Of a stretch of 32,000 bases of DNA, positions 5,249 to 31,089 are shown in pieces. The notes beneath the pieces were generated by a model. The model saw only the letters and a program-made list of their open reading frames with translations, was not told where the DNA came from and did not search any database. The position numbers and the translations under genes are program-made. Origin of the DNA: Sulfolobus acidocaldarius DSM 639 (lineage in GTDB: Archaea > Thermoproteota > Thermoprotei_A > Sulfolobales > Sulfolobaceae); assembly GCF_000012285.1 (NCBI RefSeq), contig NC_007181.1, positions 240,001-272,000 on the forward strand, written 5' to 3'. Within the stretch, counting starts at the first letter, position 1; each line of letters opens with the position of its first letter.

Positions 5249-5980
5249 GTGAACGTAGTAGCCCTTTTTAAGATAGTCCCAGATGATACTTTAATAAAAA
5301 TAACAGGAAGCACTCTAGATCTAAATGTACCAGCAAAAATAAGCACATACGACAAGAGCGCAATTGAAGAGGCTATAAGAATAAAAGAAAAACATGGTGG
5401 AAAGGCAATAGGTATAACAGCAGGTAATACAGATAGAAAGGCTATTAGAGAAGCCTTAGCAATGGGTCTAGACGAGGTTATAGCTATAGATATGAAAGAA
5501 CAAGATATTTACAGTACAGCAAATATGATAGCAGATCAATTAAAACAACTCAATCCTGATCTTGTGATAGGTTCAGAGGCTACAACAGATAGTAGCGGTG
5601 GTATATTTCCTGCATATCTAGCTGGTTTACTTGGACTGCCTTTAATAAGTTATGTTAAGTCCATAACGATAGAAGGAAAGAAAATAAGAGCTGAAAGAAA
5701 CTTAATCTCGTCTACTGAAATAGTTGAGGCAGAGTTACCACTTGTAATTTCAGTAGTAGGAGAGATAAACACGCCTAGAATACCTACAGTCAAGCAAATA
5801 CTTGAGTCCTCTAAAAAGCCTGTGAAGAGCGTAAATGCAAATGTAAAGCCATTGGTAAAGTTAGCGTCAGTATCTCCTTATGTAATCCAGAGGAAAAAGA
5901 TAATAATAGATGGCTCTAAGATGGAAGAAGCTGTCGATAAACTACTTTCATACTTGAGGCAAGAAGGGGTGATTTCATGA
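5249..5980 (+). CDS. etfB: electron transfer flavoprotein beta subunit (FixA-like), module 1
   Basis: The N-terminal VALFKIVPDD matches the ETF-beta beta-strand/VPD motif. AIEEAIRIKEKHGG...AIREALAMGLDEVI is typical. GTG start. The stop overlaps the etfA start (ATGA). Confidence 0.85.
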   Translation: MNVVALFKIVPDDTLIKITGSTLDLNVPAKISTYDKSAIEEAIRIKEKHGGKAIGITAGNTDRKAIREALAMGLDEVIAIDMKEQDIYSTANMIADQLKQLNPDLVIGSEATTDSSGGIFPAYLAGLLGLPLISYVKSITIEGKKIRAERNLISSTEIVEAELPLVISVVGEINTPRIPTVKQILESSKKPVKSVNANVKPLVKLASVSPYVIQRKKIIIDGSKMEEAVDKLLSYLRQEGVIS

Positions 5981-6822
5981 ACATAGTTGTCTATTCAGAA
6001 GATCCTGAATATATAAAGGTAGCATCAAGCTATTTTCCAAATGAAAAGATAGTAGCAGTCTCCACATCAGATACAAAGTATGCAGATGAATTGCATGTTG
6101 TAGATAAGATGGATGAGGAAGCCATAGCAAAATATCTCGCATCACTTAAGCCAGATTTACTTATAACGGGAAGCACAAAAAGGGATAAAGTAGTAGGAGC
6201 CTACGCTGCTGGTTTATTAAAATACCCAATTTTACCTGATGTAATTGAGATATCTGGCAACAAAGCTAAGAGAGTAGTCTATAGCGGAATGGGGATTGCT
6301 GAGCTTGAGTTCAATACCCCAATTGTGGTCTCCATATCCAAGAAGAACGTTGAAGCAAAAGAGAGACAAACACAGAAAAAGAACGTTAATTTAGAGGAGG
6401 GTAAGGTTAAGAAAATTGAGGTTAAGCAAAAAGGTGGAGAAGGAGTAGATCTATCGTCTGCTCAGATAATAGTCTCAGTTGGGAGAGGGATAGGCTCTAA
6501 GGAGAATATAAAGTTCGCTGACGAGTTGGCTAGAGCCATAGGAGGAGCTTTAGGTGGAAGCAGACCTATTACTGCTGATCTGGGTTGGTTACCAGAGGAT
6601 AGACAAATTGGTTTGTCTGGTCTAAAAGTAAAGCCAAAAGTATACTTCGCTCTAGGAATATCGGGTCAGCCACAGCACTTAGCTGGTATAAAGGATTCTA
6701 AGATAATTGTAGCAGTAAATACAGACAAGAATGCACCTATAGTCGAAAACGCTGATTACATAGTTGTGGGGGACGTAATAAAATTCTGTCAAGAAATGGT
6801 GAAAAAAGTGGGTAAGAAATGA
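5977..6822 (+). CDS. etfA: electron transfer flavoprotein alpha subunit (FixB-like), module 1
   Basis: The C-terminal FAD-binding signature PKVYFALGISGQPQHLAGIKDSKIIVAVNTDKNAPI matches the ETF-alpha pattern. At 281 aa the N-terminal domain is shorter than usual. Confidence 0.85.
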   Translation: MNIVVYSEDPEYIKVASSYFPNEKIVAVSTSDTKYADELHVVDKMDEEAIAKYLASLKPDLLITGSTKRDKVVGAYAAGLLKYPILPDVIEISGNKAKRVVYSGMGIAELEFNTPIVVSISKKNVEAKERQTQKKNVNLEEGKVKKIEVKQKGGEGVDLSSAQIIVSVGRGIGSKENIKFADELARAIGGALGGSRPITADLGWLPEDRQIGLSGLKVKPKVYFALGISGQPQHLAGIKDSKIIVAVNTDKNAPIVENADYIVVGDVIKFCQEMVKKVGKK

Positions 6823-8042
6823 GTTTTGATGCTGATGTAATTGTAGTTGGTGGAGGCTTAGGCGGACTATCTGCTGCAATAACAGCAGCCAAAGAAGGGT
6901 TGAGTGTCATTGTATTAGAGAGGGGAGACTATAGTGGTGCAAAAAATGTATCAGGAGGAAGAATGTACATACATGCCCTACAGAAACTTATACCAGATGC
7001 GTTAGAGAGAGCCCCCCTAGAGAGACCTATAACTAAGGAAACATTTGAATTTTATTGCAGTAATGACAGGAAACTGTCTTTTTCTTTTGAGGAAAAAGGA
7101 AAGAAGAATAGTTACTCTATATTAAGAGCAAAATTTGATAGATGGCTTGCAAGTGAGGCAGAAAATCTGGGCGTATTGATTTCATATTCAACGTTAGTCA
7201 CAAATGCTCAAAGAGAAACTGGAGGGATTAATCTAGAGACCAACAGAGGAAACCTGAGAGCACCGTTGGTGATTGACGCATCAGGTGTTACGTCTGTCGT
7301 GTTCAGGTATCTAGGTTTAAGAAAGTTTACCCCTGATAAGTGGATGTTAGGAGCAAAAGAGATAATAAAGACTGACGTAAATCTACCTGAAGATGAAGGT
7401 GAAGTTAGAACAATAGTTGCTGCCGTGAAGGGCGTCAAAGGGGGAGGTTTTGTTTACACTAACAAAGATACTTTGTCAGTGGGTATGGCTGTAACTTTTG
7501 ATTCCCTACCTAAATCTGAAGTACCTGCAAAAGATTTAGTTGAAGCATTTAGGGAGAAGTTGGGTATAGAGGGAGAAATTCTTGAGTATTCTGCACATGC
7601 GATTCCATATTTCGGATACAGAAATCTTCCTCCACTCTATGATAACAACCTAATAGCTGTAGGGGATTCAGCTGGTTTTCTAATAAATGATGGATTTACC
7701 ATAAGAGGTATGGATCTAGCTATAGGCTCAGGTATGATAGCTGGACTAGCTGCAAAGAAACTAAAAGAGATTAATGACTACACAAAGACTGACGTCTATT
7801 ACCAGATGCTTAAGGAGAGCTTCGTATTAAGGCACCTAGAGTTAGCATACAACAGGTTTTCAGTAATAAATGACCCTAGGACTTTAGTGTCATATCCAGA
7901 GGTTCTATGCAATGTATTAACGGACATGTTTACAGTAACAGAGGAGAGGAAACCATTAATGGAGGTAGCCCTTCAAAGGCTTAAGGAGAAGGATATTTCG
8001 TTAACCAAAGCATTAATGGACTTAATGAGGGCTAGTAAGTAA
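6819..8042 (+). CDS. fixC: FixC-like FAD-dependent oxidoreductase (ETF:quinone oxidoreductase-type), module 1
   Basis: Dinucleotide-binding motif DVIVVGGGLGGLSAA...VLERG, then NVSGG. ATGA overlap with etfA. Confidence 0.85.
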   Translation: MSFDADVIVVGGGLGGLSAAITAAKEGLSVIVLERGDYSGAKNVSGGRMYIHALQKLIPDALERAPLERPITKETFEFYCSNDRKLSFSFEEKGKKNSYSILRAKFDRWLASEAENLGVLISYSTLVTNAQRETGGINLETNRGNLRAPLVIDASGVTSVVFRYLGLRKFTPDKWMLGAKEIIKTDVNLPEDEGEVRTIVAAVKGVKGGGFVYTNKDTLSVGMAVTFDSLPKSEVPAKDLVEAFREKLGIEGEILEYSAHAIPYFGYRNLPPLYDNNLIAVGDSAGFLINDGFTIRGMDLAIGSGMIAGLAAKKLKEINDYTKTDVYYQMLKESFVLRHLELAYNRFSVINDPRTLVSYPEVLCNVLTDMFTVTEERKPLMEVALQRLKEKDISLTKALMDLMRASK

Positions 8043-8274: not shown

Positions 8275-8544
8275 TTATCCATACCTATACGAAATTCCTC
8301 CCTCAGGGAAGTTAAATGTTATAGCCCCGAATGGACAAATGACTATCGCTCCTCCACATTCCAAGCATCTCTCGTAATGAACAATTATCCTGCCATCTTC
8401 AGAAGGTTCGTATGTCCCTGCTGGACACGACGCAACACATGGTTTATCTTTGCAAGTTAAACATATGTCAGTATTAACTTGAATGTGAGATTTGTTATTT
8501 ACTGTATACGTATTCAGCCCCAATCTTTTAAGTAAAGGTATCAT
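8275..8544 (-). CDS. fixX: FixX-like ferredoxin, module 1, encoded on the opposite strand
   Basis: CLTCKDKPCVASCP and CLECGGAIVICP cysteine motifs with a C-terminal ISYRYG, paralogous to the 30799-31089 product (VAFRYG). Confidence 0.8.
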   Translation of the reverse strand: MIPLLKRLGLNTYTVNNKSHIQVNTDICLTCKDKPCVASCPAGTYEPSEDGRIIVHYERCLECGGAIVICPFGAITFNFPEGGISYRYG

Positions 8545-18505: not shown

Positions 18506-19060
18506 TCAACTCTGAAGTAACACAGCTAACGCTAAGATCAACAGTGTTACAGAATAAATATAGTCAAAGTTGAACTTAGTTAAAAGTACTAGTACATTGT
18601 TTTTCTTTAGCACGATAAAGTAAGTGACTTCTCTCACTATAAATACTCCCACAGGAAGGAATACGAATAATGTATTCACTATTATCGCCAAAATTATCAA
18701 AAGGATAACATTCATCTGCAGGATGGAGTTCAGAAATGTGGATTTAACCAAGTTATAAACTGATACTCTCATACTTCCTGTGTAATGGAGCAACTTTCCT
18801 AAAAACATCTTCATCAAAATGTGAATTATGACGAGAAATATCACTATGACTTTGGTTGAATTGGAACTTTGAAGACTAGAAAATGTGAAAAACACTACAA
18901 GTATACCTAAGGAATAGTAGGAAAGAGTAGAGAGAAGAGGAACTACGAAGGACTCCTTGACTTTCTTGAAACTGTAAAAGTAATATGAAAAAAGCAATCC
19001 CTTGTAAGGATCTAGACCTTCAATTAGACTAAGGATAACAATAAGAATCTGAGGAAGCAT
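18506..19060 (-). CDS. hypothetical polytopic membrane protein, 184 aa
   Basis: About 5-6 TM segments. Its ATG lies 32 nt inside the 3' end of the upstream SBP56 gene on the same strand. No in-frame ATG/GTG/TTG lies closer to the SBP56 stop. Confidence 0.5.
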   Translation of the reverse strand: MLPQILIVILSLIEGLDPYKGLLFSYYFYSFKKVKESFVVPLLSTLSYYSLGILVVFFTFSSLQSSNSTKVIVIFLVIIHILMKMFLGKLLHYTGSMRVSVYNLVKSTFLNSILQMNVILLIILAIIVNTLFVFLPVGVFIVREVTYFIVLKKNNVLVLLTKFNFDYIYSVTLLILALAVLLQS

Positions 19061-20429
19061 CTCCTCCTCTTAACCTCGTCTGATGTGCTCTAGCCTCTCC
19101 AAAATCCACGAAAAATTCCTTATCTATATCAAGTCCTCCCTCGGGGTTCGCATTTAGTTTGACTAGCCATCCTTTGACTCCCTCAGGGTAAAATTGATTG
19201 TCCCAAGAACTGTAAAGCGAGTTAGTAACGTAAATCCTTCTACCATCTCTACTTATTTCCACCATCTGAGGGGCTCCTGTAAGTTTATTACCTGAGGGGT
19301 GATCAGCTCTGTACAGGATTCCCCCTAACTTCACTTTACCTGTGAGAACGGGCTTAAATGGGTTACTTACGTCGTACTGCCTCAGTTCCCCTGTGCCCCA
19401 TAGACTAACATATAGAAACTTATCATCTAGACTAAGGTCAATATCGGTTACTAGAGGAGGGACTGCCTTAAAAGGTTTAAGTATATCAGGTAAATTACCC
19501 TCTGCAGGCTCTGCTGGTATATCGATGACCTTTTGAGCCTGCCATTTTCCGTCTTCGAAAAACCAGAGCCATATGGAACTGCTGAGATCTTTAAGGCTAA
19601 CTACTAGATTGATAAATCCCATCAATTTAGTAGGGTCATGTAAGGGTCGGAGTTCTAAAGCCATCCTGTTTTCCTCTCCCAGAGTTATGCTCGAAATCTT
19701 CTTTCTCTTCCTTAAATCCCAAAAATGAATTCTGTTGCCGTATTTCTCCTTCAAATGTTCAGGATTTAGACCATTTTCGATCGTCGTTGGGGTAGCCCAT
19801 TCACTAGTCACCATAATCTCATTGGGAAGATTCCACCAGAAGTCATATGATAGCTTTTGATCCTCCCTGTAAATTTCCCATTTTCCTAAGGGTTCGAAAC
19901 TATAGTGGTCAAGCATTAATATTCCTCCAGGTTCTTCACCGACTTCGTTACCCAGTGCGCTGATATATATAGCATCAGGTCCACAATGAACCGTATGAAG
20001 CCTTGAGTAACCAGTGACTTTCTTTATCTCCTCTGGTTGTATAACTTTAACGATATTTGGTTTTCTAGGATCTAGTTTTGTGTCTATTATGTAAATTCTT
20101 GAAGAACGTAATCCTGGAACCACTAGAAACCTTCTCTCAACATTTGGTCTCCCATTTGGACAGAGTGAGGAGCTACACGCGTTCCAGCCGAAGTGGTGCA
20201 GTTCATCTCCAGTGTATGGAAGCTCAACCTTAGCTACTACTTTCGTATAGGTTTCAGATTTTGGGTTAACATCTACAACCGCTATATAATCTGGTCTATT
20301 GATCTTTGTTCCTACGTAGAGACATGCGACATAAGCCAGATCCTCAGGAGGTGAGTTGATAGCCATTTTAGGAGATGGGTAAAATGTGGGATCTCTCTTA
20401 AATGGTGCAAATACCTGAGGTAATCCCAT
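19029..20429 (-). CDS. selenium-binding protein 56 (SBP56) / methanethiol oxidase family beta-propeller protein
   Basis: Family-typical stretches include ELHHFGWNACSS, RLHTVHCGPDAIYISALG, PLVTDIDLSLDDKFLYVSLWGTGELRQYDVS and RIYVTNSLYSSWDNQFYP. The ORF is open to TTG 20444. ATG 20429 is preferred because a TATA-like tttataac sits about 27 bp upstream. Confidence 0.85.
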   Translation of the reverse strand: MGLPQVFAPFKRDPTFYPSPKMAINSPPEDLAYVACLYVGTKINRPDYIAVVDVNPKSETYTKVVAKVELPYTGDELHHFGWNACSSSLCPNGRPNVERRFLVVPGLRSSRIYIIDTKLDPRKPNIVKVIQPEEIKKVTGYSRLHTVHCGPDAIYISALGNEVGEEPGGILMLDHYSFEPLGKWEIYREDQKLSYDFWWNLPNEIMVTSEWATPTTIENGLNPEHLKEKYGNRIHFWDLRKRKKISSITLGEENRMALELRPLHDPTKLMGFINLVVSLKDLSSSIWLWFFEDGKWQAQKVIDIPAEPAEGNLPDILKPFKAVPPLVTDIDLSLDDKFLYVSLWGTGELRQYDVSNPFKPVLTGKVKLGGILYRADHPSGNKLTGAPQMVEISRDGRRIYVTNSLYSSWDNQFYPEGVKGWLVKLNANPEGGLDIDKEFFVDFGEARAHQTRLRGGDASSDSYCYP

Positions 20430-20643
20430 AATTAAGTATATCAATCTAAAAGTTATAAACTTACATTATTAATGCAATAAAAGTTCATGTTATTAGTTAG
20501 GATACCGATATTTTAAAAATTTTCAACTTATGATTTACATTATCCTTCCCTAAAACTCAATTGGATGCAAAAATATCACATAAAATAAAAGGGTAAAAAA
20601 GAGATAAGGAGAAAAATACTTTAAATTACATATCAGAAGATAT

Positions 20644-22641
<1,998 letters not shown>

Positions 22642-22774: not shown

Positions 22775-23521
22775 TTAAATCTTAAATATATAGTTAGGAT
22801 TTGCATATCTGTCTCTTACTAACATAGATGCCAGTTCTAACTCATTCTTAGTTATCTCGTCTACATAACTGTCTACACTTAAAATTTCCTCAAAAGCCTT
22901 TGTAAACGATGAAATGATTAAATCTAGTTGTATATCCCTTCCAAGAAGATATGATAGATTGTTAACCCTGTACTTGATCATGTTTATCCCCTTATTTCTC
23001 AGACTCTTGGGCGGTATAATCAGAGTTTTGTGTAGTAAATCAAGGTCTGAGTTTATCAGCAGAGTTCCGTGAAGTAGATACTTGTTATTAGATATGTAAC
23101 CAGCATTTCCTGAAATCTTATAGTGCTTGTAAGCAATATCAGTTTGATTGTAAGTCTCTACCCTATCCCCTATTATACGCTCTAAAGCATTTATTGTACC
23201 CTTTAAAAGGAACCCGTAAAGGAAATCTATACCCTTAACTTTCACATCTTTATTTTCAAGAATTACTGTGTAGTTAAAATTCCCCATGTCATGATAAACT
23301 GTCCCTCCTCCCGTGATCCTACGAATTACGGGAATTCCCAACTGATTAGTTACCTCAATATTCACTTCATCCTTAACCCTCGATAGTACTCCCAAAACTA
23401 CACTGGTACTATTTCTCCACAGTCTCAGTACTATACTGTTATAGGCGAATAGAGCCTCATCTATGGCTACATTTAAATAAGGATCGTTAGGATACTCACT
23501 TATCAGAACGCGTAATTTCAT
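22775..23521 (-). CDS. lplA: lipoate-protein ligase A, catalytic-domain-only form
   Basis: LRLWRNSTSVVLG, RRITGGGTVYHDMGNFNYTVI (lipoyl-AMP binding signature) and YKISGNAGY...HGTLLINSDL (catalytic Lys). At 248 aa it lacks the C-terminal accessory domain. Confidence 0.85.
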   Translation of the reverse strand: MKLRVLISEYPNDPYLNVAIDEALFAYNSIVLRLWRNSTSVVLGVLSRVKDEVNIEVTNQLGIPVIRRITGGGTVYHDMGNFNYTVILENKDVKVKGIDFLYGFLLKGTINALERIIGDRVETYNQTDIAYKHYKISGNAGYISNNKYLLHGTLLINSDLDLLHKTLIIPPKSLRNKGINMIKYRVNNLSYLLGRDIQLDLIISSFTKAFEEILSVDSYVDEITKNELELASMLVRDRYANPNYIFKI

Positions 23522-23556
23522 TTAAGTTTTAATTTTAACTATGCTTTATATATCAT
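23522..23556. promoter_or_regulatory. 35-bp divergent promoter with two interleaved TATA-like boxes
   Basis: ttttaatttta (23527-23537) is centred about 25 bp upstream of GTG 23557. ctttatatat (23544-23553, read on the minus strand) is centred about 27 bp upstream of the lplA ATG at 23521. Confidence 0.5.
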
Positions 23557-23805
23557 GTGCAGTACGAGATTAAGGTACCAGAGGATATTTGGCCAAGGAG
23601 GAGGGATTGGGACGGAGAAGTAGTGTCGGTTTATGTAAGAGAGGGGAGTTATGTAGATTTCGACGACCTAGTTGCTGAAGTGGAGATTGAAAAAGTGGTA
23701 CTGAAAATTTTATCCCAAGTTAAGGGAAGGGTTCTGAAGGTGTTAGTCAACCAGGGAGATAAAGTAGGACCGGGGTCCATATTAGCGTTAGTAGAAGTGA
23801 GCTGA
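23557..23805 (+). CDS. stand-alone lipoyl(/biotinyl)-attachment domain protein, 82 aa
   Basis: The whole protein is a single hammerhead-type domain: YEIKVPE...[61 protein letters not shown]. The candidate modified Lys is K46 (nt 23692-23694) in EIEKV. It is not the biotin AMKM motif. GTG start. Confidence 0.75.
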
Positions 23806-23806
23806 G

Positions 23807-24667
23807 ATGAAAAGCGAAGTGGTAGTAAGGATTAATGAGAACTTCAAGAAACTTAGCAGGATAGTGTCTGAGAAAGGGATATCCACTGTATGCGAGGAAG
23901 CTCTATGTCCAAATATCATGGAGTGTTGGGGATCAGGAACTGCTACGTTCATGATAATGGGAGATATCTGCACAAGAGGTTGTAGGTTTTGTTATGTAAA
24001 AAAGGGTAAACCAGTCCTACTAGACCATGAGGAGCCAATAAAAGTAGCAGAGGCAGTAAGGGAAATGGGTTTAGACTATGTTGTCATAACCAGTGTTGAC
24101 AGGGATGATTTAGCAGATGGGGGAGCTTCTCATTTTTCTCAAGTTGTTAAAGCCGTGAAAGAGATGAATCCTGACGTCATAGTTGAGGTCCTTACACCAG
24201 ATTTTATGGGGAATAAAGAACTAGTGGAGAAAGTAATAGGGTCTGGCGTAGACGTATTTGCACACAACGTGGAAACGGTAAGAAGCCTGACTCCATTAGT
24301 GAGAGACGCAAGAGCATCATACGAACAAAGTTTAAGAGTACTTAGTTATGCTAAGAACGTTGTCAAAAAATCCTCTATTCTTTTAGGTCTTGGGGAGAGC
24401 TTAGAGGAAGTAGTTGAAACCATGAAGGATTTGAGAAATGTCGGTGTAGATATTTTAGTCCTTTCCCAGTACATGAGACCTAGCATTAAACAACTGGAAG
24501 TTAAGAAACGTTATAACATGGAAGAGTACAAGGAACTTGAAAAAATAGCTTATTCTTTAGGTTTTTCATATGTCGTTGCACTACCTCACGCTAGAACTTC
24601 CTACAGGGCAAAAGAGGCATATTTGAGGGCGATGGCAAATGTTAAGAATAATAATAGATGGTCCTAG
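23807..24667 (+). CDS. lipA: lipoyl synthase
   Basis: Auxiliary-cluster motif [12 protein letters not shown] (CX4CX5C), radical-SAM motif CTRGCRFC (CX3CX2C) and a C-terminal RTSY (RSSY-type) motif. It starts 1 nt after the upstream stop. Confidence 0.9.
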
Positions 24668-25436
24668 GGATCCGCATTATAATATGGCAATTGACGAAGC
24701 CATAATGGGTCTCAGACCATATGTAAAATATGATACACTGAGAATTTACATGTGGTCTCCTTCAGGTGTTAGTATAGGGAGATCACAAGACGCTCTAAGA
24801 GCAGTAAAGATAGAAGAAATAAAGAGGTTAGGGTTTAAGCTAGTGAGAAGACCTACAGGAGGCGGAGCACTTTTACATCCTGAAAATGACGAGATAACCT
24901 ATAGTGTTGTATTATCACTGGATAACCAATTAGCTAAAATCCCTGTGGATGAATCTGCATCGTCCATAGCCAAAGGTATAATTGATGCTCTACAAATAAT
25001 AGGTTCTAGTGCTAAGGTAAAGGATTTTGGAGATAAGGAGAAACACGATCTCTGCTACTTGAGAAGAGGATCCAGCGACGTAATCTTAGGAGGGAAGAAG
25101 ATCTCTGGATCAGCTCAGGTTAGGAACGATAAGGCACTTCTACAACACGGTACACTTCTGCTCAGATTTGAACCTGAGGTTTGGCTAAGGGTTATTAATG
25201 CGCCAGGATATGACCACGAAATGCTCAGAAGTAGGATAGCAGGCTTATATGAGTTCATGGACGTAAAAATAGAGAAAATAATTGACAGCTTAGTTAAAGG
25301 TTTTTCGAAAGAGTTAGGGGATGAAACTTTTATAGGAAGCCTAACTCCTGAAGAAGTTCAACTATCACTAGAGCTATATCAGAAAAAATATTCTAACGAT
25401 TTATGGAATCTTAAGGGCTCCCTAGAACAATTTTGA
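24639..25436 (+). CDS. BPL/LplA/LipB-family protein, candidate LipM/LipL-like octanoyl/lipoyl (amido)transferase
   Basis: [38 protein letters not shown] (lacks the HDxGN ligase signature) and KKISGSAQ...QHGTLLL. C139 (nt 25053-25055) lies exactly 15 residues before conserved K154 (nt 25098-25100). It overlaps the lipA 3' end by 29 nt. Confidence 0.75.
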
Positions 25437-25589: not shown

Positions 25590-25811
25590 GTGAGAGAAGA
25601 CTTTGATCAATTGCTATTTGGACTAGCTGGTGTTATCTTTTTAGAAGGGCTAGGTATAGCTCTGGATGTAGTAGGACAGTATGCCATAGGAAGTGTTCTT
25701 ATTGTTATTGCAACAGTCTGGATCTTATCTATTTACTTCTTCATGAAGTACATCGAGAAAAAAGACTCAGAAAATGAGGAAAACGAAGATAACTCCTATA
25801 ATAATTTCTGA
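25590..25811 (+). CDS. small hypothetical membrane protein with acidic C-terminal tail, 73 aa
   Basis: GTG-start ORF with two TM segments followed by KKDSENEENEDNSYNNF. Weak support. Confidence 0.35.
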   Translation: MREDFDQLLFGLAGVIFLEGLGIALDVVGQYAIGSVLIVIATVWILSIYFFMKYIEKKDSENEENEDNSYNNF

Positions 25812-25897: not shown

Positions 25898-26725
25898 GTG
25901 GTTATTATGAATATGATTAGAAGATCTCAGTTATATGTGCCTTCAATATCTGAAAAGATGATAAGAAAATCCATTGAGCTCAAGGCTGACTCTATAGTAT
26001 TTGATCTTGAGGACGCAGTGCCACCAGAGGATAAAGAAAAGGCTAGAGAGTTACTGGTAAAGCTGATCAATGAACTGGAATGGGGAAAGAGGGAGTTATG
26101 TGTTAGGATGAATTCGCTTCAACTAGTGGACGCATATAGGGACATTGTCACCATTTCTAGGATAGACAAGATCTCTTGCATAGTTGTTCCTAAAGCAGAG
26201 GGTGACTTATCATTCCTGCACAAAGCTACAGGAAAAGATTTAATTCCCTTGATAGAGACAGGAAAGGGTTTGATAAGAGTAGAGGATATAGTTAGATCTG
26301 AGGGAGTTGTAGGCGTAAGCTACGGTATAGCAGATTTATCCCTCTCAGTAGGGGGAGATTATAACTTTTACGAGAAAAATGAGTTTGTTAAAACTTATGT
26401 TGTGACCACTGCTAAGGCTTACGATGTCGACCCCATAGATAAGGTGTATTTCGATCTAAAGAACGTAGACGGTTTCAGGAGAGAATGCGAGGAGGCAAAA
26501 AAACTGGGTTTTGTGGGCAAACAGGTAATTCACCCCACACAAGTTGAAATAGCTAACCAGGTGTTCTCCCCAACTGCAGAAGAGATAGAATGGGCTAGGA
26601 GGGTTATTGAGGCTTATGATAATGCAAAGAGAGAGGGAAGGGGGGCAATAAGGCTTGATGATAAACTGGTAGACTATGTGCATTATAAGATAGCAAAGAG
26701 GATACTTGAGTTTCAGAATCTATAA
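25898..26725 (+). CDS. HpcH/HpaI aldolase / citrate lyase beta (CitE)-like acyl-CoA lyase
   Basis: RRSQLYVPS...KADSIVFDLEDAVPP, IETGKGL and GFVGKQVIHPTQV are the CitE/malyl-CoA lyase family motifs. Confidence 0.8.
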   Translation: MVIMNMIRRSQLYVPSISEKMIRKSIELKADSIVFDLEDAVPPEDKEKARELLVKLINELEWGKRELCVRMNSLQLVDAYRDIVTISRIDKISCIVVPKAEGDLSFLHKATGKDLIPLIETGKGLIRVEDIVRSEGVVGVSYGIADLSLSVGGDYNFYEKNEFVKTYVVTTAKAYDVDPIDKVYFDLKNVDGFRRECEEAKKLGFVGKQVIHPTQVEIANQVFSPTAEEIEWARRVIEAYDNAKREGRGAIRLDDKLVDYVHYKIAKRILEFQNL

Positions 26726-27117
26726 ATAGACCATGTCCCTAGACCCACAGCACAGAGCTCTTTATCTCCGTCGTAAGCGTAAATTTGGACAGTGACCAAT
26801 TTGTTTCCCTTATTTACTACTTTAGCCTCAACTGTAAATGGACCTTTGTTCATCGGTTTGAGGAAATTGACTTTGAGCTCTGCAGTGACTTCATCTTTAA
26901 CTTCACTCAACGAAAGCACTGCCATACTTCCTGCATAGTCCATAGCTGAAAACATTATACCACCGTGTAACATTCCTCCTAGTCTAGTAAGTCTCTTGTC
27001 AAAATCGAATTTGAGGAGGGAGTAACCATTCTCAACTTTTTCGAATCTTATTCCTATAAAATTAAATACGTCTTCTTGTTTTAACCTCTCATTTAGTTCC
27101 TCTGGTGATATAAGCAT
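26713..27117 (-). CDS. PaaI/4HBT-type hotdog-fold thioesterase
   Basis: GGMLHGGIMFSAMDYAGS followed by a long central-helix/beta-sheet pattern. 134 aa. It overlaps the convergent CitE-like gene by 13 nt. Confidence 0.8.
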   Translation of the reverse strand: MLISPEELNERLKQEDVFNFIGIRFEKVENGYSLLKFDFDKRLTRLGGMLHGGIMFSAMDYAGSMAVLSLSEVKDEVTAELKVNFLKPMNKGPFTVEAKVVNKGNKLVTVQIYAYDGDKELCAVGLGTWSIYRF

Positions 27118-27784: not shown

Positions 27785-29614
27785 TTGGCAGAGCTTAAAA
27801 TTGTCGTTAGTATAAAGCAAGTTCCAGACGCTGATGACCTCAGAATAGATCCAGTAACAAATAACCTAGTCAGAGAAGGTGTACCAGCCGTAATAAACCC
27901 ACCAGACTACCATGCAATAGAGGAGGCAATTAGACTGAAGGAAAGGTTTGGCGGAAAGACTATGGTCTTGACTATGGGACCAGGACAGGCAGAGGTAGCT
28001 CTTAGAGAAGCACTAGCCATGGGAATTGATGAAGCTTACCTAATAAGTGACAGAGCGATGGCTGGTGCTGATACATGGGCTACATCTTATACTGTGGCTA
28101 AAGCAGTTCAGAGACTAGGAGGGGCTGATATAATCCTTTTTGGTAGAAGAGCTGTAGATGGAGAAACGGAGCAAGTAGGTCCACAAACAGGTAAATGGTT
28201 AGGAATTCCAGTTGTAGCTTATGTTAGAGAGATAAGAAGTATAGAAAATGGTAAAGCAGTTGTAGTGAGGACAACAGAATTTGAGGAGGAAGTTATTGAG
28301 GTTCCATTACCAGCCGTATTCACAATTTTAGAGACAGCAAATAAGCCAAGACAACCTGATATACTCTCTCTAATAAAGGCTAAGACTGCTAAGGTAACAG
28401 TATGGAATAAAGACGATATTAAGGCTGAACCAACAAAAATTGGTCTTGCAGGTTCTCCCACTAAGGTCATAAAAGTAAGCCCACCACCAAAGACGAGAAA
28501 GCCTGAAATCATAGACGGTAAGAAAGATCCTGAGAAGGCAGCTGAGTGGTTCTTAAACAAGATATATGAGTCCCTCAAGGAGGCTGAAAGTTCTCTTAAA
28601 GAATACGTTAAGCCAAAGGCTAAGGTCAAGGTGAATTCTGAGATTTGGGTTTACATAGACCATATTGGTGATAGGATTAACAAGGCATCTCTAGAAATTT
28701 TGAGCGAAGCCAGGAGGATAGCAGACTTAATGGATACCTCAGTTGCAGGAGTAGTTATAGGTGGAGAGAGCGTAAAGGGTATAATTAACGAAGTTTATGA
28801 ATACGGAGCTGATAAGGTATATTTTGCCGAGACAAAGGGATATGACAGATATGATAATGAGGTTTACACTAAGGCTCTAGCAAAGTTAGCTAAGAAGTAT
28901 AAGCCAGAGGGAATATTCTTCCCTGGTACTAGAGCTGCTAGGGAATTGGCATCCACGTCAGCAATAGAGATTGATACTGGATTGATTGCTGATTGTACGA
29001 ATTTTGATGTTGATGATAAGGGAGTGTTATTGGCAACTAGACCTGACTTCGGAGGAAAGGAAATGTCCACTATAGTGTGTCCAAGACACAGACCAGTGAT
29101 GGTCACTACCAGAGCCGGTGTATTTATGCCATTACCCAGAATGCCTGGAAGGACAGGAGAATTAATAAAGGAGGAAATAGAAGATTTGTACAGTAGGTTA
29201 AAAGTTCTAGAATATAAAAACATAGAGAAAAGGAATATATTGACTGAGGCTGATATAGTTGTAGGTGTAGGTAGAGGTATAAAGAGTCCAGAGAACATAA
29301 AGAAGTTTGAAGAGTTTGCTACAGCGTTAGGTGGTGTTCTAGGTGTGTCTAAACCATTAGCCGACATGGGTTGGTATCCAAAGGATAGGCAAATAGGTCA
29401 AACAGGAACTACTATAAGACCGAAAGTTTATATTGCACTAGGCGTTTCAGGCGCTGTACAGCACTTAGTGGGTATTTTATCTTCAAGGAAGATCGGTGCT
29501 ATCAATCTTGACCAGTCTGCCCCAATATTTGACAACTGTGACTTCGGAGTAGTAGGAGATATATTTGAGATTGTTCCAAAAATGATGGAGTTAATTAAAA
29601 AGAAGGGGGAGTGA
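27785..29614 (+). CDS. fused electron transfer flavoprotein, EtfB (N-terminal) - EtfA (C-terminal), module 2
   Basis: The N-terminal half is ETF-beta (KIVVSIKQVPD, AIEEAIRLKERFGG, VDGETEQVGPQ). A K/E-rich linker lies around aa 260-285 (nt about 28560-28640). The C-terminal half is ETF-alpha with PKVYIALGVSGAVQHLVGILSSRKIGAINLDQSAPI. TTG start. Confidence 0.85.
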   Translation: MAELKIVVSIKQVPDADDLRIDPVTNNLVREGVPAVINPPDYHAIEEAIRLKERFGGKTMVLTMGPGQAEVALREALAMGIDEAYLISDRAMAGADTWATSYTVAKAVQRLGGADIILFGRRAVDGETEQVGPQTGKWLGIPVVAYVREIRSIENGKAVVVRTTEFEEEVIEVPLPAVFTILETANKPRQPDILSLIKAKTAKVTVWNKDDIKAEPTKIGLAGSPTKVIKVSPPPKTRKPEIIDGKKDPEKAAEWFLNKIYESLKEAESSLKEYVKPKAKVKVNSEIWVYIDHIGDRINKASLEILSEARRIADLMDTSVAGVVIGGESVKGIINEVYEYGADKVYFAETKGYDRYDNEVYTKALAKLAKKYKPEGIFFPGTRAARELASTSAIEIDTGLIADCTNFDVDDKGVLLATRPDFGGKEMSTIVCPRHRPVMVTTRAGVFMPLPRMPGRTGELIKEEIEDLYSRLKVLEYKNIEKRNILTEADIVVGVGRGIKSPENIKKFEEFATALGGVLGVSKPLADMGWYPKDRQIGQTGTTIRPKVYIALGVSGAVQHLVGILSSRKIGAINLDQSAPIFDNCDFGVVGDIFEIVPKMMELIKKKGE

Positions 29615-29617
29615 AAA

Positions 29618-30802
29618 GTGGAGTTTGATGTTATAGTTATAGGAGCAGGACCAGCAGGATCAGCTGCTGCTCTTACTGCAGCAAAAGGAGGAGCTAAAGT
29701 ACTTCTCCTGGAAAAGGGACCTGAACCAGGATCAAAAAATGTCTCCGGAGCGATGATAAGGACAGAGGAAATCGCAAAAGTATTTGATACATCATCAATG
29801 CCATTTGAGAGAAAAGTGAAAAATGTTGATTTAATATTCATGGACTCTACAGGGAAAGTGAGAATCAGTGTAGATATATCATCAGGTCTAATAAACGTAG
29901 GTAGACTTAAGCTCGATAAATGGATGGCTCAACAAGCTGAGAAAGCTGGTGCAGTTTTAGTGACTAAGACCACTGCTTTGGGTGTAGAAAAAGATGGTGA
30001 AAAGTACAAAGTAGTTACTGACAGGGGAAGTATTAGTGGAAGCAAGGTTGTTTTAGCTGAAGGAGTTAATGCGTTAATTTCCATGGGAATGAAAATTAGA
30101 CCTGATCTAGAGCCTGAACATTCAGTTCAAGCTGTAAAGGAAGTATACAATTTGAATAAGGACGAAATAAATAAGAGGTTAGGATTTAAGAGCGATGAAG
30201 AGGGTTCCAGCTGGAGAATATTTGGCACTAACCCAGTTCCTTATGCTGGATTCCTTTACACATACAAGGACGCTATTGCAATAGGTGTAGGTATTCCAAT
30301 GTCTATACTAATAAAGAAGAAGATCTCTCCTTACACAGTATTGGATGAACTTAAAGAGAGACTAGGAATTAATGAACTTGTTAAAGGCGGGTCTCTTAGG
30401 GAGTATTCTGCAAAAGTCATACCAGAACAGGGATTCCCTTCATATAGAGCCTGTTCTGGTAAAATATACCTCGCAGGTGACTCCATAGGTTTAATTAACG
30501 CATTAACATTCAATGGCATAGGACCGGCAGTTATTTCTGGATCTATAGCAGGTAAAGCGGCTCTAGAGGGATATGAGTGTTTCAAGTACGAAGAAGAGCT
30601 TATGAAAGACAAGGAGATTAAAGGAGTTGTAAAGGCTAGACCTCTGATACAAGAGTTAACTAAGGAAGAGAACTTGAACTATTATGTAAACTTCCTGGGG
30701 GATGCACTTCATTCATGGGCTTATGGTTCCCTTTCCCTTAATTTAGATATGCCCAGACTTATTAAACACTTAATGTTAGGTATGGGGGTGTTAAAAGCAT
30801 GA
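29618..30802 (+). CDS. fixC: FixC-like FAD-dependent oxidoreductase, module 2
   Basis: DVIVIGAGPAGSAAALTAAKGGAKVLLLEKG followed by NVSGA. GTG start 3 nt after the fused ETF stop. Confidence 0.85.
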   Translation: MEFDVIVIGAGPAGSAAALTAAKGGAKVLLLEKGPEPGSKNVSGAMIRTEEIAKVFDTSSMPFERKVKNVDLIFMDSTGKVRISVDISSGLINVGRLKLDKWMAQQAEKAGAVLVTKTTALGVEKDGEKYKVVTDRGSISGSKVVLAEGVNALISMGMKIRPDLEPEHSVQAVKEVYNLNKDEINKRLGFKSDEEGSSWRIFGTNPVPYAGFLYTYKDAIAIGVGIPMSILIKKKISPYTVLDELKERLGINELVKGGSLREYSAKVIPEQGFPSYRACSGKIYLAGDSIGLINALTFNGIGPAVISGSIAGKAALEGYECFKYEEELMKDKEIKGVVKARPLIQELTKEENLNYYVNFLGDALHSWAYGSLSLNLDMPRLIKHLMLGMGVLKA

Positions 30803-31089
30803 GAATTGAGGAAAGGTTATATACTTTAAGATATAAGAGAGACGAAAAACCACACTTATCAATAATTGAGCCCAATAAGTGTCAAAAGTGTGCTGAAATT
30901 AATGGAGTACCTGAACCATGTATCGTTGTTTGCCCAGCAAATGTGTACTCATGGGTAGACAACAATAGAATAGTAGTATCCTATGAGAACTGTGTTGAGT
31001 GCGGAGCCTGTAGAATAGCATGTCCATTCGATAATATTTCCTGGAAGTATCCAAGATATGGTCTCGGAGTAGCATTTAGATATGGGTAA
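30799..31089 (+). CDS. fixX: FixX-like ferredoxin, module 2
   Basis: CQKC...CIVVCP and CVECGACRIACP cysteine motifs with a C-terminal AFRYG. ATGA overlap with fixC. Confidence 0.85.
   Translation: MRIEERLYTLRYKRDEKPHLSIIEPNKCQKCAEINGVPEPCIVVCPANVYSWVDNNRIVVSYENCVECGACRIACPFDNISWKYPRYGLGVAFRYG

Follow-up and report, generated by a model that had tools for sequence, protein, structure and literature searches.

A conserved lipA gene unit of Sulfolobus acidocaldarius as a candidate lipoyl-assembly module that is independent of acyl carrier protein and encodes its own putative lipoyl carrier

Where does the octanoyl group for lipoate assembly come from in archaea? For the archaeal homologs of the octanoyltransferase LipM, the donor is an open question because acyl carrier protein (ACP) is absent (Tanabe 2023). 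A four-gene unit in the genetically tractable Sulfolobus acidocaldarius DSM 639 offers a concrete answer. It lies within 32,000 nt of contig NC_007181.1 (positions 240,001 to 272,000) that were analysed as one stretch, called the window throughout and used for all coordinates below, and it consists of the gene for an 82-aa lipoyl-domain protein (LD), the lipoyl synthase gene lipA and two genes of the LplA family. With moderate confidence, we explain the whole as an ACP-independent lipoyl-assembly module whose own first gene encodes its substrate, LD being more likely the end user of the lipoyl group than an intermediate stop. If this is true, the octanoyl group would be supplied as octanoyl-coenzyme A (octanoyl-CoA) by the newly described archaeal fatty-acid synthase and would pass through Cys139 of Saci_0310.

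The window was identified as S. acidocaldarius by the 82-aa protein, which is identical to Q4JBV5/AAY79724.1, and by the electron transfer flavoprotein (ETF) Saci_0315 at 27785-29614. Locus tags of the four genes were taken from the source data of Cao et al. (2018). The unit is composed as follows:

22775-23521, minus strand: Saci_0307 (Q4JBV6; here lplA1), 248 aa, LplA-type catalytic domain without cysteine
23522-23556: divergent intergenic region, 35 bp between opposing start codons
23557-23805, plus strand: Saci_0308 (Q4JBV5; LD), 82 aa, GTG start, predicted E2-type lipoyl domain
23807-24667, plus strand: Saci_0309 (LipA), 286 aa, lipoyl synthase according to family models and cysteine motifs
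24639-25436, plus strand: Saci_0310 (Q4JBV3; here lplA2), 265 aa, LplA fold, Cys139/Lys154

LD and lipA are separated by 1 nt and lipA overlaps Saci_0310 by 29 nt according to the open reading frame (ORF) check; these junctions, the gene coordinates and the 35-bp spacer had been given in a first-pass annotation of this DNA and were all correct when the sequence was rechecked. Searches with Pfam and NCBIfam hidden Markov models (HMMs), which that annotation had proposed, identified both paralogs as LplA catalytic domains, LD as a biotin/lipoyl domain and Saci_0309 as LipA. The 35-bp spacer contains two A/T-rich TATA-like boxes, each located ~25-27 bp 5′ of the opposing start codon. By what is generally known of Sulfolobus promoters, these boxes are putative promoters and suggest leaderless transcripts in both directions. 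Within the window, the unit is flanked by T-rich non-coding DNA.

The first-pass annotation had regarded the four genes as one unit, and comparison among genomes confirmed this. Loci were reached both from the transferase side and from the LD side, the most divergent LD members included. The order LD, lipA, Cys-bearing paralog was present in all Thermoprotei loci examined (13/13), the genes usually abutting or overlapping, and the Cys-less paralog adjoined them in 11 of the 12 loci that could be evaluated. Normally it follows directly downstream on the same strand; in Sulfolobaceae it is inverted and placed upstream, and in HS-7 it is convergent. Since each locus has other, unrelated genes on its flanks while the order within is constant, the four-gene unit is a self-contained module of Thermoprotei, found in Sulfolobaceae, Desulfurococcales, Acidilobaceae and Aeropyrum. 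No LD gene was found beside the LipM-like genes of Nanoarchaeota, Woesearchaeota, Bathyarchaeia, Baldrarchaeia and Paenibacillus.

Central to the argument is Saci_0310. Its sole cysteine, Cys139, stands 15 residues N-terminal of Lys154, and both residues are invariant in 45 of its orthologs (37-68% identity); orthologs are spread across Sulfolobales, Desulfurococcales, Acidilobaceae and Aeropyrum. When GTDB genomes were scanned by pattern, Bacillota relatives with ~30-34% identity over the full length emerged. One of these, a 278-aa protein of Bacillus sonorensis, has Cys150 as its only cysteine, 15 residues before Lys165, and in a joint alignment these two residues share the columns of Cys139 and Lys154. 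Its gene sits between gcvT-gcvPA-gcvPB-rhodanese and mntR, which is the yqhI-N arrangement around lipM in B. subtilis, and this neighbourhood makes it the positional ortholog of lipM. Cys150, together with Lys165, is presumably also the catalytic residue of B. subtilis LipM, given the numbering in B. sonorensis. The Cys-Lys spacing of LipM that the first-pass annotation had noticed in Saci_0310 is thus seen again in the lipM positional ortholog, with the same alignment column and the same 15-residue gap. For LipL, a catalytic role of Cys150 is cited, and LipB is known to act through a Cys/Lys pair that forms a thioester intermediate.

An alignment of 92 family members places these residues in a wider frame. 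The Lys is universal, and the Cys column contains C in all LipM-type sequences (82/82) and S in Thermoplasma LplA; a gap stands in its place in all Saci_0307 orthologs and in two archaeal relatives that lack the Cys. In a rough neighbour-joining (NJ) tree, the Thermoprotei clade of Saci_0310 and the bacterial LipM-like proteins are sister groups. Thermoplasma LplA falls outside them, and the Saci_0307 orthologs form a deep clade of their own; this topology agrees with the one published by Tanabe (2023). The domains PF21948/PF03099 span residues 11-222 of Saci_0310, and an accessory (LplB) domain at the C-terminus was not found, as PF10437 gave no match and the AF2 model (mean predicted local distance difference test, pLDDT, 96.1) consists of a single domain. 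The counterpart of the GGG motif of ligases begins at residue 74, and the ligase motif RRxxGGGxx(F/Y)HD is only partly present, its Asp not being conserved among the relatives of Saci_0310. Because of the invariant Cys139 and Lys154, the shared columns with Cys150 and Lys165, the Cys in 82/82 LipM-type sequences and the sister position in the NJ tree, Saci_0310 is most likely a LipM-type Cys/Lys acyltransferase and not an ATP-dependent ligase.

The candidate substrate is the 82-aa LD, which matches Pfam Biotin_lipoyl (6.5e-12) and has Lys46 in the sequence EIEKV. Its family comprises at least 120 clusters, all of them stand-alone proteins of 78-104 aa, and every named one is from Thermoprotei. 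Lys46 is invariant within the motif VEIEK(A/V), and so is Glu43 at position -3, a residue that is experimentally essential for recognition by LplJ-type ligases (published). A profile of the family matches E2 lipoyl domains with 1e-14 to 1e-25 (1LAB 1.4e-14; for the Thermoplasma E2 lipoyl domain 7e-11 was obtained) versus ~6e-9 for the best biotinyl carrier. The AF2 model (pLDDT 94.4) is all-beta, with Lys46 in a hairpin turn between strands 38-44 and 47-52, and the best fold matches are E2 lipoyl domains (template modelling score, TM, 0.80-0.85). An assignment to GcvH or LbpA was not obtained, the H-protein model PF01597 scoring 17.4 bits against a cutoff of 22.2 and over residues 20-62 only. 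An exhaustive profile search for fusions of LD into an E2 chain with subunit-binding or acyltransferase domains returned none, in a result swamped by multi-domain E2s; the E2 proteins cover only positions 19-82 of the LD profile. We conclude that LD is predicted to be an E2-type lipoyl domain with Lys46 as the lipoyl-lysine. The earlier view of the protein as nothing but a lipoyl domain is upheld by the profile comparison, the model and the fold matches; the view of its EIEKV turn as atypical holds mildly at most, as the family consensus VEIEKA fits the lipoyl pattern E-x-x-K-A.

A further feature of LD is the conserved sequence WPRRxxWxG (residues 12-20), which makes up the loop joining strands 1 and 2. 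The same loop adjoins the lipoyl-lysine in E2 domains and helps to determine partner specificity there. By analogy, the conserved loop suggests a dedicated interaction surface.

The identity of the third component, LipA, follows from its family models and cysteines. NF004019 (365.9 bits versus a cutoff of 203; 1.3e-109) and TIGR00510 (331.9 versus 310) both scored above cutoff. The auxiliary-cluster cysteines are 29/34/40 (CX4CX5C), those of the radical-SAM cluster 55/59/62 (CX3CX2C), and the C-terminal RTSY is present. In strain SUSAZ, LD is annotated with 92 aa and a C-terminal extension (…SSDEKRSGRED) and LipA with 262 aa, which suggests a difference in sequence or annotation at the LD-lipA junction.

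Saci_0307, the fourth component, is different from Saci_0310. It contains no cysteine at all, lacks the Cys loop as well as an accessory domain, and retains the ligase motif RRITGGGTVYHDMGN. The motif GGGTVYHDMGN starts at residue 71 and the catalytic Lys is Lys135; the RRxxGGGxx(F/Y)HD stretch reads RRITGGGTVYHD and, with Lys135, is invariant across orthologs. The orthologs keep RRxxGGGxVYHDxGNxN and the Lys nearly as in Thermoplasma LplA, and the Cys loop is deleted in all of them. Hence, the upstream paralog is ligase-like and without Cys near its Lys, just as the first-pass annotation had described it. That annotation had also seen no LplB next to this ligase, and we likewise found no match to LplB/LplA-C (PF10437) in the window ORFs scanned or beside the modules elsewhere. 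For the genome, 'no lplB' is reported by Cao et al. (2018), and the LplA-C column of Borziak (2014) is empty for DSM 639. Thermoplasma LplA needs LplB for adenylation (Tanabe 2023; Borziak 2014). With no LplB in the window, beside the modules or in the surveys, a canonical bipartite ligase is not evident, and by its sequence Saci_0307 could be a salvage ligase, a lipoyl-AMP transferase or an amidotransferase.

Two observations concern the relatives of Saci_0307. Orthologs outside Sulfolobaceae have a conserved CxxxxC pair (PCEEVxCEEA) just before RRxxGGG as well as a conserved motif RGEVTPAKYNPxN; both are absent from Saci_0307 and were seen in loci L002, L003, L084, L086, L087 and L088, at alignment columns of about 50-62. 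In addition, NCBIfam model NF053790 describes bifunctional LplA-LipA fusions of 606 aa, and its matches in the window fall on 22775-23521 and 23807-24667. The ligase half fits Saci_0307 (2e-29) far better than Saci_0310 (1.3e-8), a hint that elsewhere LipA is physically joined to the Cys-less type.

How might these components work together? What the data show is which genes are present, that the Cys and the Lys are conserved, that LD has a lipoyl-type fold and that the operon recurs; where the octanoyl group comes from, in which order the steps follow, what Saci_0307 does and what becomes of lipoyl-LD we infer. In a first step, Saci_0310 would take octanoyl from a thioester and bind it on Cys139. 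As there is no ACP, this thioester must differ from the one used in Bacillus, and the most plausible candidate would be octanoyl-CoA, a product of the CoA-dependent fatty-acid synthase of archaea. De novo synthesis of C8:0 and C10:0 in S. acidocaldarius runs through a CoA-dependent, ACP-free pathway, and octanoyl-CoA is accepted by LipB and, in vitro, by mouse LIPT2 (published). In a second step, the octanoyl group would move from Saci_0310 to Lys46 of the co-translated Saci_0308, and in a third LipA would add two sulfurs to give lipoyl-Saci_0308. Saci_0307 would provide a second acyl-transfer activity, either for salvage or for a LIPT1/LipL2-like transfer from activated or protein-bound lipoyl. 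In S. acidocaldarius, Saci_0308 is itself more likely the end user of the module, perhaps as a dithiol, acyl or sulfur carrier, than a stop on the way to E2 or GcvH.

The question of where the lipoyl group goes separates the two readings that survive best. According to Borziak (2014), DSM 639 has neither E2 nor GcvH and is the only genome of this kind with a potential lipoyl domain; that survey also defines a class of single-domain lipoyl proteins. The LbpA proteins of S. acidocaldarius have their own cluster of LipS1/S2 and ligase (Cao et al. 2018). No LplB, GcvH or E2 gene was found in the window or beside the modules; models of LipL did not rise above noise among the window proteins, and no archaeal LipL was found by Borziak (2014). 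Since DSM 639 and S. islandicus REY15A retain the module with neither E2 nor GcvH detected, and LbpA has a separate maturation cluster, we rate LD as the module's client and probable end user somewhat above LD as a relay hub. More tentatively, the module's sole client may be the free 82-aa lipoyl protein acting outside the 2-oxoacid dehydrogenase, glycine-cleavage and sHdr complexes. This would be a sixth lipoyl-dependent function in aerobic Thermoprotei, for example a shuttle of dithiol redox equivalents, acyl groups or sulfur that is recognised via the WPRR..W loop.

Alternatively, and in our view doubtfully, Saci_0308 would be the site of lipoate assembly, and one LplA paralog or the other would carry the finished group over to E2, GcvH and possibly LbpA, on the pattern of Bacillus (LipM-GcvH-LipA-LipL) or of mitochondria (LIPT2-GCSH-LIAS-LIPT1). 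Two differing acyl-transfer enzymes, a carrier and LipA are the part list of known relays, the Cys-less and LplB-less Saci_0307 resembles LIPT1-type transferases in architecture, and no partner gene (E1, E3 or a redox enzyme) is conserved beside the module, unlike in LbpA/GcvH-L systems. E2 is present in many module-bearing species (S. solfataricus, most S. islandicus, A. pernix; Borziak 2014), so that a relay is possible there. Moreover, the absence of GcvH is not secure, since the survey of 2014 behind it overlooked the GcvH-like LbpA proteins as well; S. acidocaldarius may have a real GcvH. On the other hand, the module persists in S. acidocaldarius DSM 639 and S. islandicus REY15A, where neither E2 nor GcvH was found, there is no LipL homolog, LbpA is matured by the separate LipS1/S2 and ligase cluster and relatives manage without LipA, and a lipoyl group leaving LD is supposition. 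Of the dedicated-carrier relay proposed in the first-pass annotation, the part list, the bare lipoyl domain and the conserved unit stand, and it is the onward transfer that has been weakened. The alternative offered there, the mini-protein as a terminal lipoyl carrier, is now at least as likely.

Less favoured still is the view that both paralogs are ordinary ATP-dependent octanoate/lipoate ligases working with LipA, the Cys being structural and LD one substrate among others. Pfam LplA-B_cat matches both LplA-type paralogs (1.3e-44 and 2.5e-31), their top HMM and PDB matches are LplA catalytic subunits, and three surveys classed both as LplA; among these, Tanabe (2023) counts 70 Thermoproteota genomes with 'LipA + Lpl'. 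Several points of this kind weigh against our preferred explanation. The identity of Saci_0310 to bacterial LipM is 33%, versus 30% to Thermoplasma LplA, and the latter gives its best PDB matches by sequence and fold (TM 0.82-0.90). The HMM scheme of Tanabe (2023) put Saci_0310 into cd16443_LplA and not into HAMAP LipM (MF_02118). The NJ tree was computed without support values or bootstrap. All motifs of a ligase are retained in Saci_0307, which might simply act as an octanoate/lipoate ligase with no need of LplB. Octanoyl-CoA is a poor substrate for B. subtilis LipM (published). Yet Thermoplasma LplA requires LplB for adenylation and none was found; a true ligase, Thermoplasma LplA, has Ser where Saci_0310 has an invariant Cys at the LipM catalytic position, the only Cys of the protein; the Saci_0310 clade groups with LipM-type proteins; and strict operon coupling to a dedicated LD is unexpected for a general ligase. 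We therefore regard this view as unlikely. Two comparisons bear on neither side: in Foldseek, the LipL-like structures 2P0L/2P5I (TM ~0.70) rank below Thermoplasma LplA, which confirms the LplA fold and does not discriminate, and no LipM-specific NCBIfam model fires, not even on Bacillus LipM, nor is there a LipM structure in the PDB.

That LD instead carries biotin, or that it stays unmodified and serves LipA as a partner in structure or regulation, is very improbable: several database records call it 'biotin attachment protein' and biotinyl domains share the fold and occur among its fold matches, but the profile comparison given above led us to reject the biotinyl assignment, no Met flanks the Lys, the E-x-E-K-A/V motif has Glu at -3 as in lipoyl acceptors, and LD is always encoded together with LipA and two LplA-family enzymes, never with a carboxylase.

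The ACP-independent module favoured here can be compared with four known systems. In mitochondria, lipoylation proceeds via LIPT2, GCSH, LIAS and LIPT1, and Plasmodium has LipL1 and LipL2. The mitochondrial pathway shares with the module a Cys-type octanoyltransferase, a carrier, a lipoyl synthase and a Cys-less transferase of LplA fold. It differs in that LIPT2 is LipB-type and not LipM-type, the carrier is an H-protein and the components are not operon-encoded; the analogy of Saci_0307 to the mitochondrial and Plasmodium transferases is architectural only. The relay of B. subtilis resembles the module in its LipM-type Cys/Lys enzyme (Cys 15 residues before Lys, same column, ~33% identity), a small octanoyl-receiving carrier, a LipA acting on protein-bound octanoyl and a second enzyme of the LplA superfamily. 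There, however, the carrier is GcvH and not an E2-type domain of 82 aa encoded inside the operon, whereas here ACP is missing and the donor is probably octanoyl-CoA, the second enzyme lacks a catalytic Cys and is not LipL, and S. acidocaldarius shows no obvious acceptor further downstream.

Thermoplasma acidophilum LplA-N/LplA-C (2ARS, 3R07) is the best match of both paralogs (E 1e-25 to 1e-29, TM 0.82-0.90) and has the same catalytic-domain-only architecture, RRxxGGG and Lys. It has an LplA-C/LplB partner that was not found here, and Ser in place of the Cys of Saci_0310; Thermoplasma also lacks LipA, whereas in the module the operon joins both paralogs to LipA and a carrier. The sHdr-LbpA system (Cao et al. 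2018; Tanabe 2023) likewise encodes a dedicated small lipoyl carrier together with assembly enzymes and is also present in S. acidocaldarius, ~30 kb away (Saci_0343-0351). Its carrier is GcvH-like and it uses LipS1/S2, the full-length ligase sLpl(AB) and the known partner sHdr; here we have a predicted E2-type domain, canonical LipA, a probable LipM-type transferase and no known partner.

The component families and the dedicated carriers GcvH and LbpA are known, and the module is therefore a variation on known lipoyl-assembly systems and not a new category. Nor are the genes new: Saci_0307, Saci_0309 and Saci_0310 were catalogued in three surveys as ligases and LipA. in Cao et al. (2018), Saci_0309 is entered as LipA, and the label for Saci_0307/0310 is 'archaeal LplA, no lplB'; Borziak (2014) has Q4JBV3 (Saci_0310) and Q4JBV6 as LplA-N and Q4JBV4 as LipA; Tanabe (2023) classed both paralogs as ligases, and there the LD gene (_311) was not called. 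The conserved Cys or an operon with LD is mentioned in none of the three. The first-pass annotation knew of no pathway with a mini-carrier encoded inside a lipA operon, and we too found no description of such an arrangement in the literature searched, which left most subscription journals outside. As far as this literature goes, an E2-type mini-carrier before lipA, the reassignment of a 'ligase' to the LipM type, the strict conservation of the four genes and a carrier that is possibly the only client have not been described.

If the LipM-type reading is true, it suggests that a whole clade has perhaps been misfiled: three surveys count it as 'ligase plus LipA', the bin into which 70 Thermoproteota genomes have been put. 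Furthermore, LipA and this carrier are retained in S. acidocaldarius despite the reported absence of E2 and GcvH, and the mini-protein may therefore reveal what lipoate is used for in organisms of this kind, be it as a minimal relay hub or in a new function. A side observation concerns the labels of Borziak (2014), whose Table S1 lists proteins of Sulfolobales as 'LipM', in S. acidocaldarius Q4JBR2 and Q4JBR8. Judged by accession neighbourhood, these are apparently the long ligases of the sHdr cluster (Saci_0345/0351 region), which later work characterises as sLpl(AB) (Cao et al. 2018; Tanabe 2023), so that the LipM and LplA labels seem swapped relative to the Cys criterion.

Around the module, the window contains the following genes:

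5249-5980: etfB of a split ETF system
5977-6822: etfA of the split system
6819-8042: FixC-like flavoprotein of the split system
8275-8544, minus strand: small 4Fe-4S ferredoxin of the split system
19029-20444, minus strand: SBP56 (56-kDa selenium-binding protein/methanethiol-oxidase family), full-length, Pfam E=4e-205
20644-22641, minus strand: AMP-forming acyl/acetyl-CoA synthetase, 665 aa, ACAS_N domain, adjoining Saci_0307
25590-25811, plus strand: predicted membrane ORF, 73 aa, downstream of the module
25898-26725, plus strand: CitE/HpcH-like lyase, downstream of the module
26713-27117, minus strand: 4HBT thioesterase, converging with the lyase gene with a 13-nt overlap
27785-29614: fused EtfAB (Saci_0315)
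29618-30802: FixC
30799-31089: FixX

The membrane ORF, the lyase and the thioesterase are not conserved beside the module in any of the other genomes. A functional link of the module to the neighbouring acyl/acetyl-CoA synthetase, CitE-like, thioesterase and ETF genes was considered and rejected, since the flanks differ in every other locus. AMP-binding enzymes also occur near the lone LipM-like gene of Baldrarchaeia and near one module in a Sulfolobales metagenome-assembled genome (L083 9429-11069; L088 3477-5243); such neighbours may be a weak link to acyl-CoA supply and are not conserved in other loci. The window thus holds two separate ETF systems, one split and one fused, and the SBP56 homolog is located two genes away from the lipoate module.

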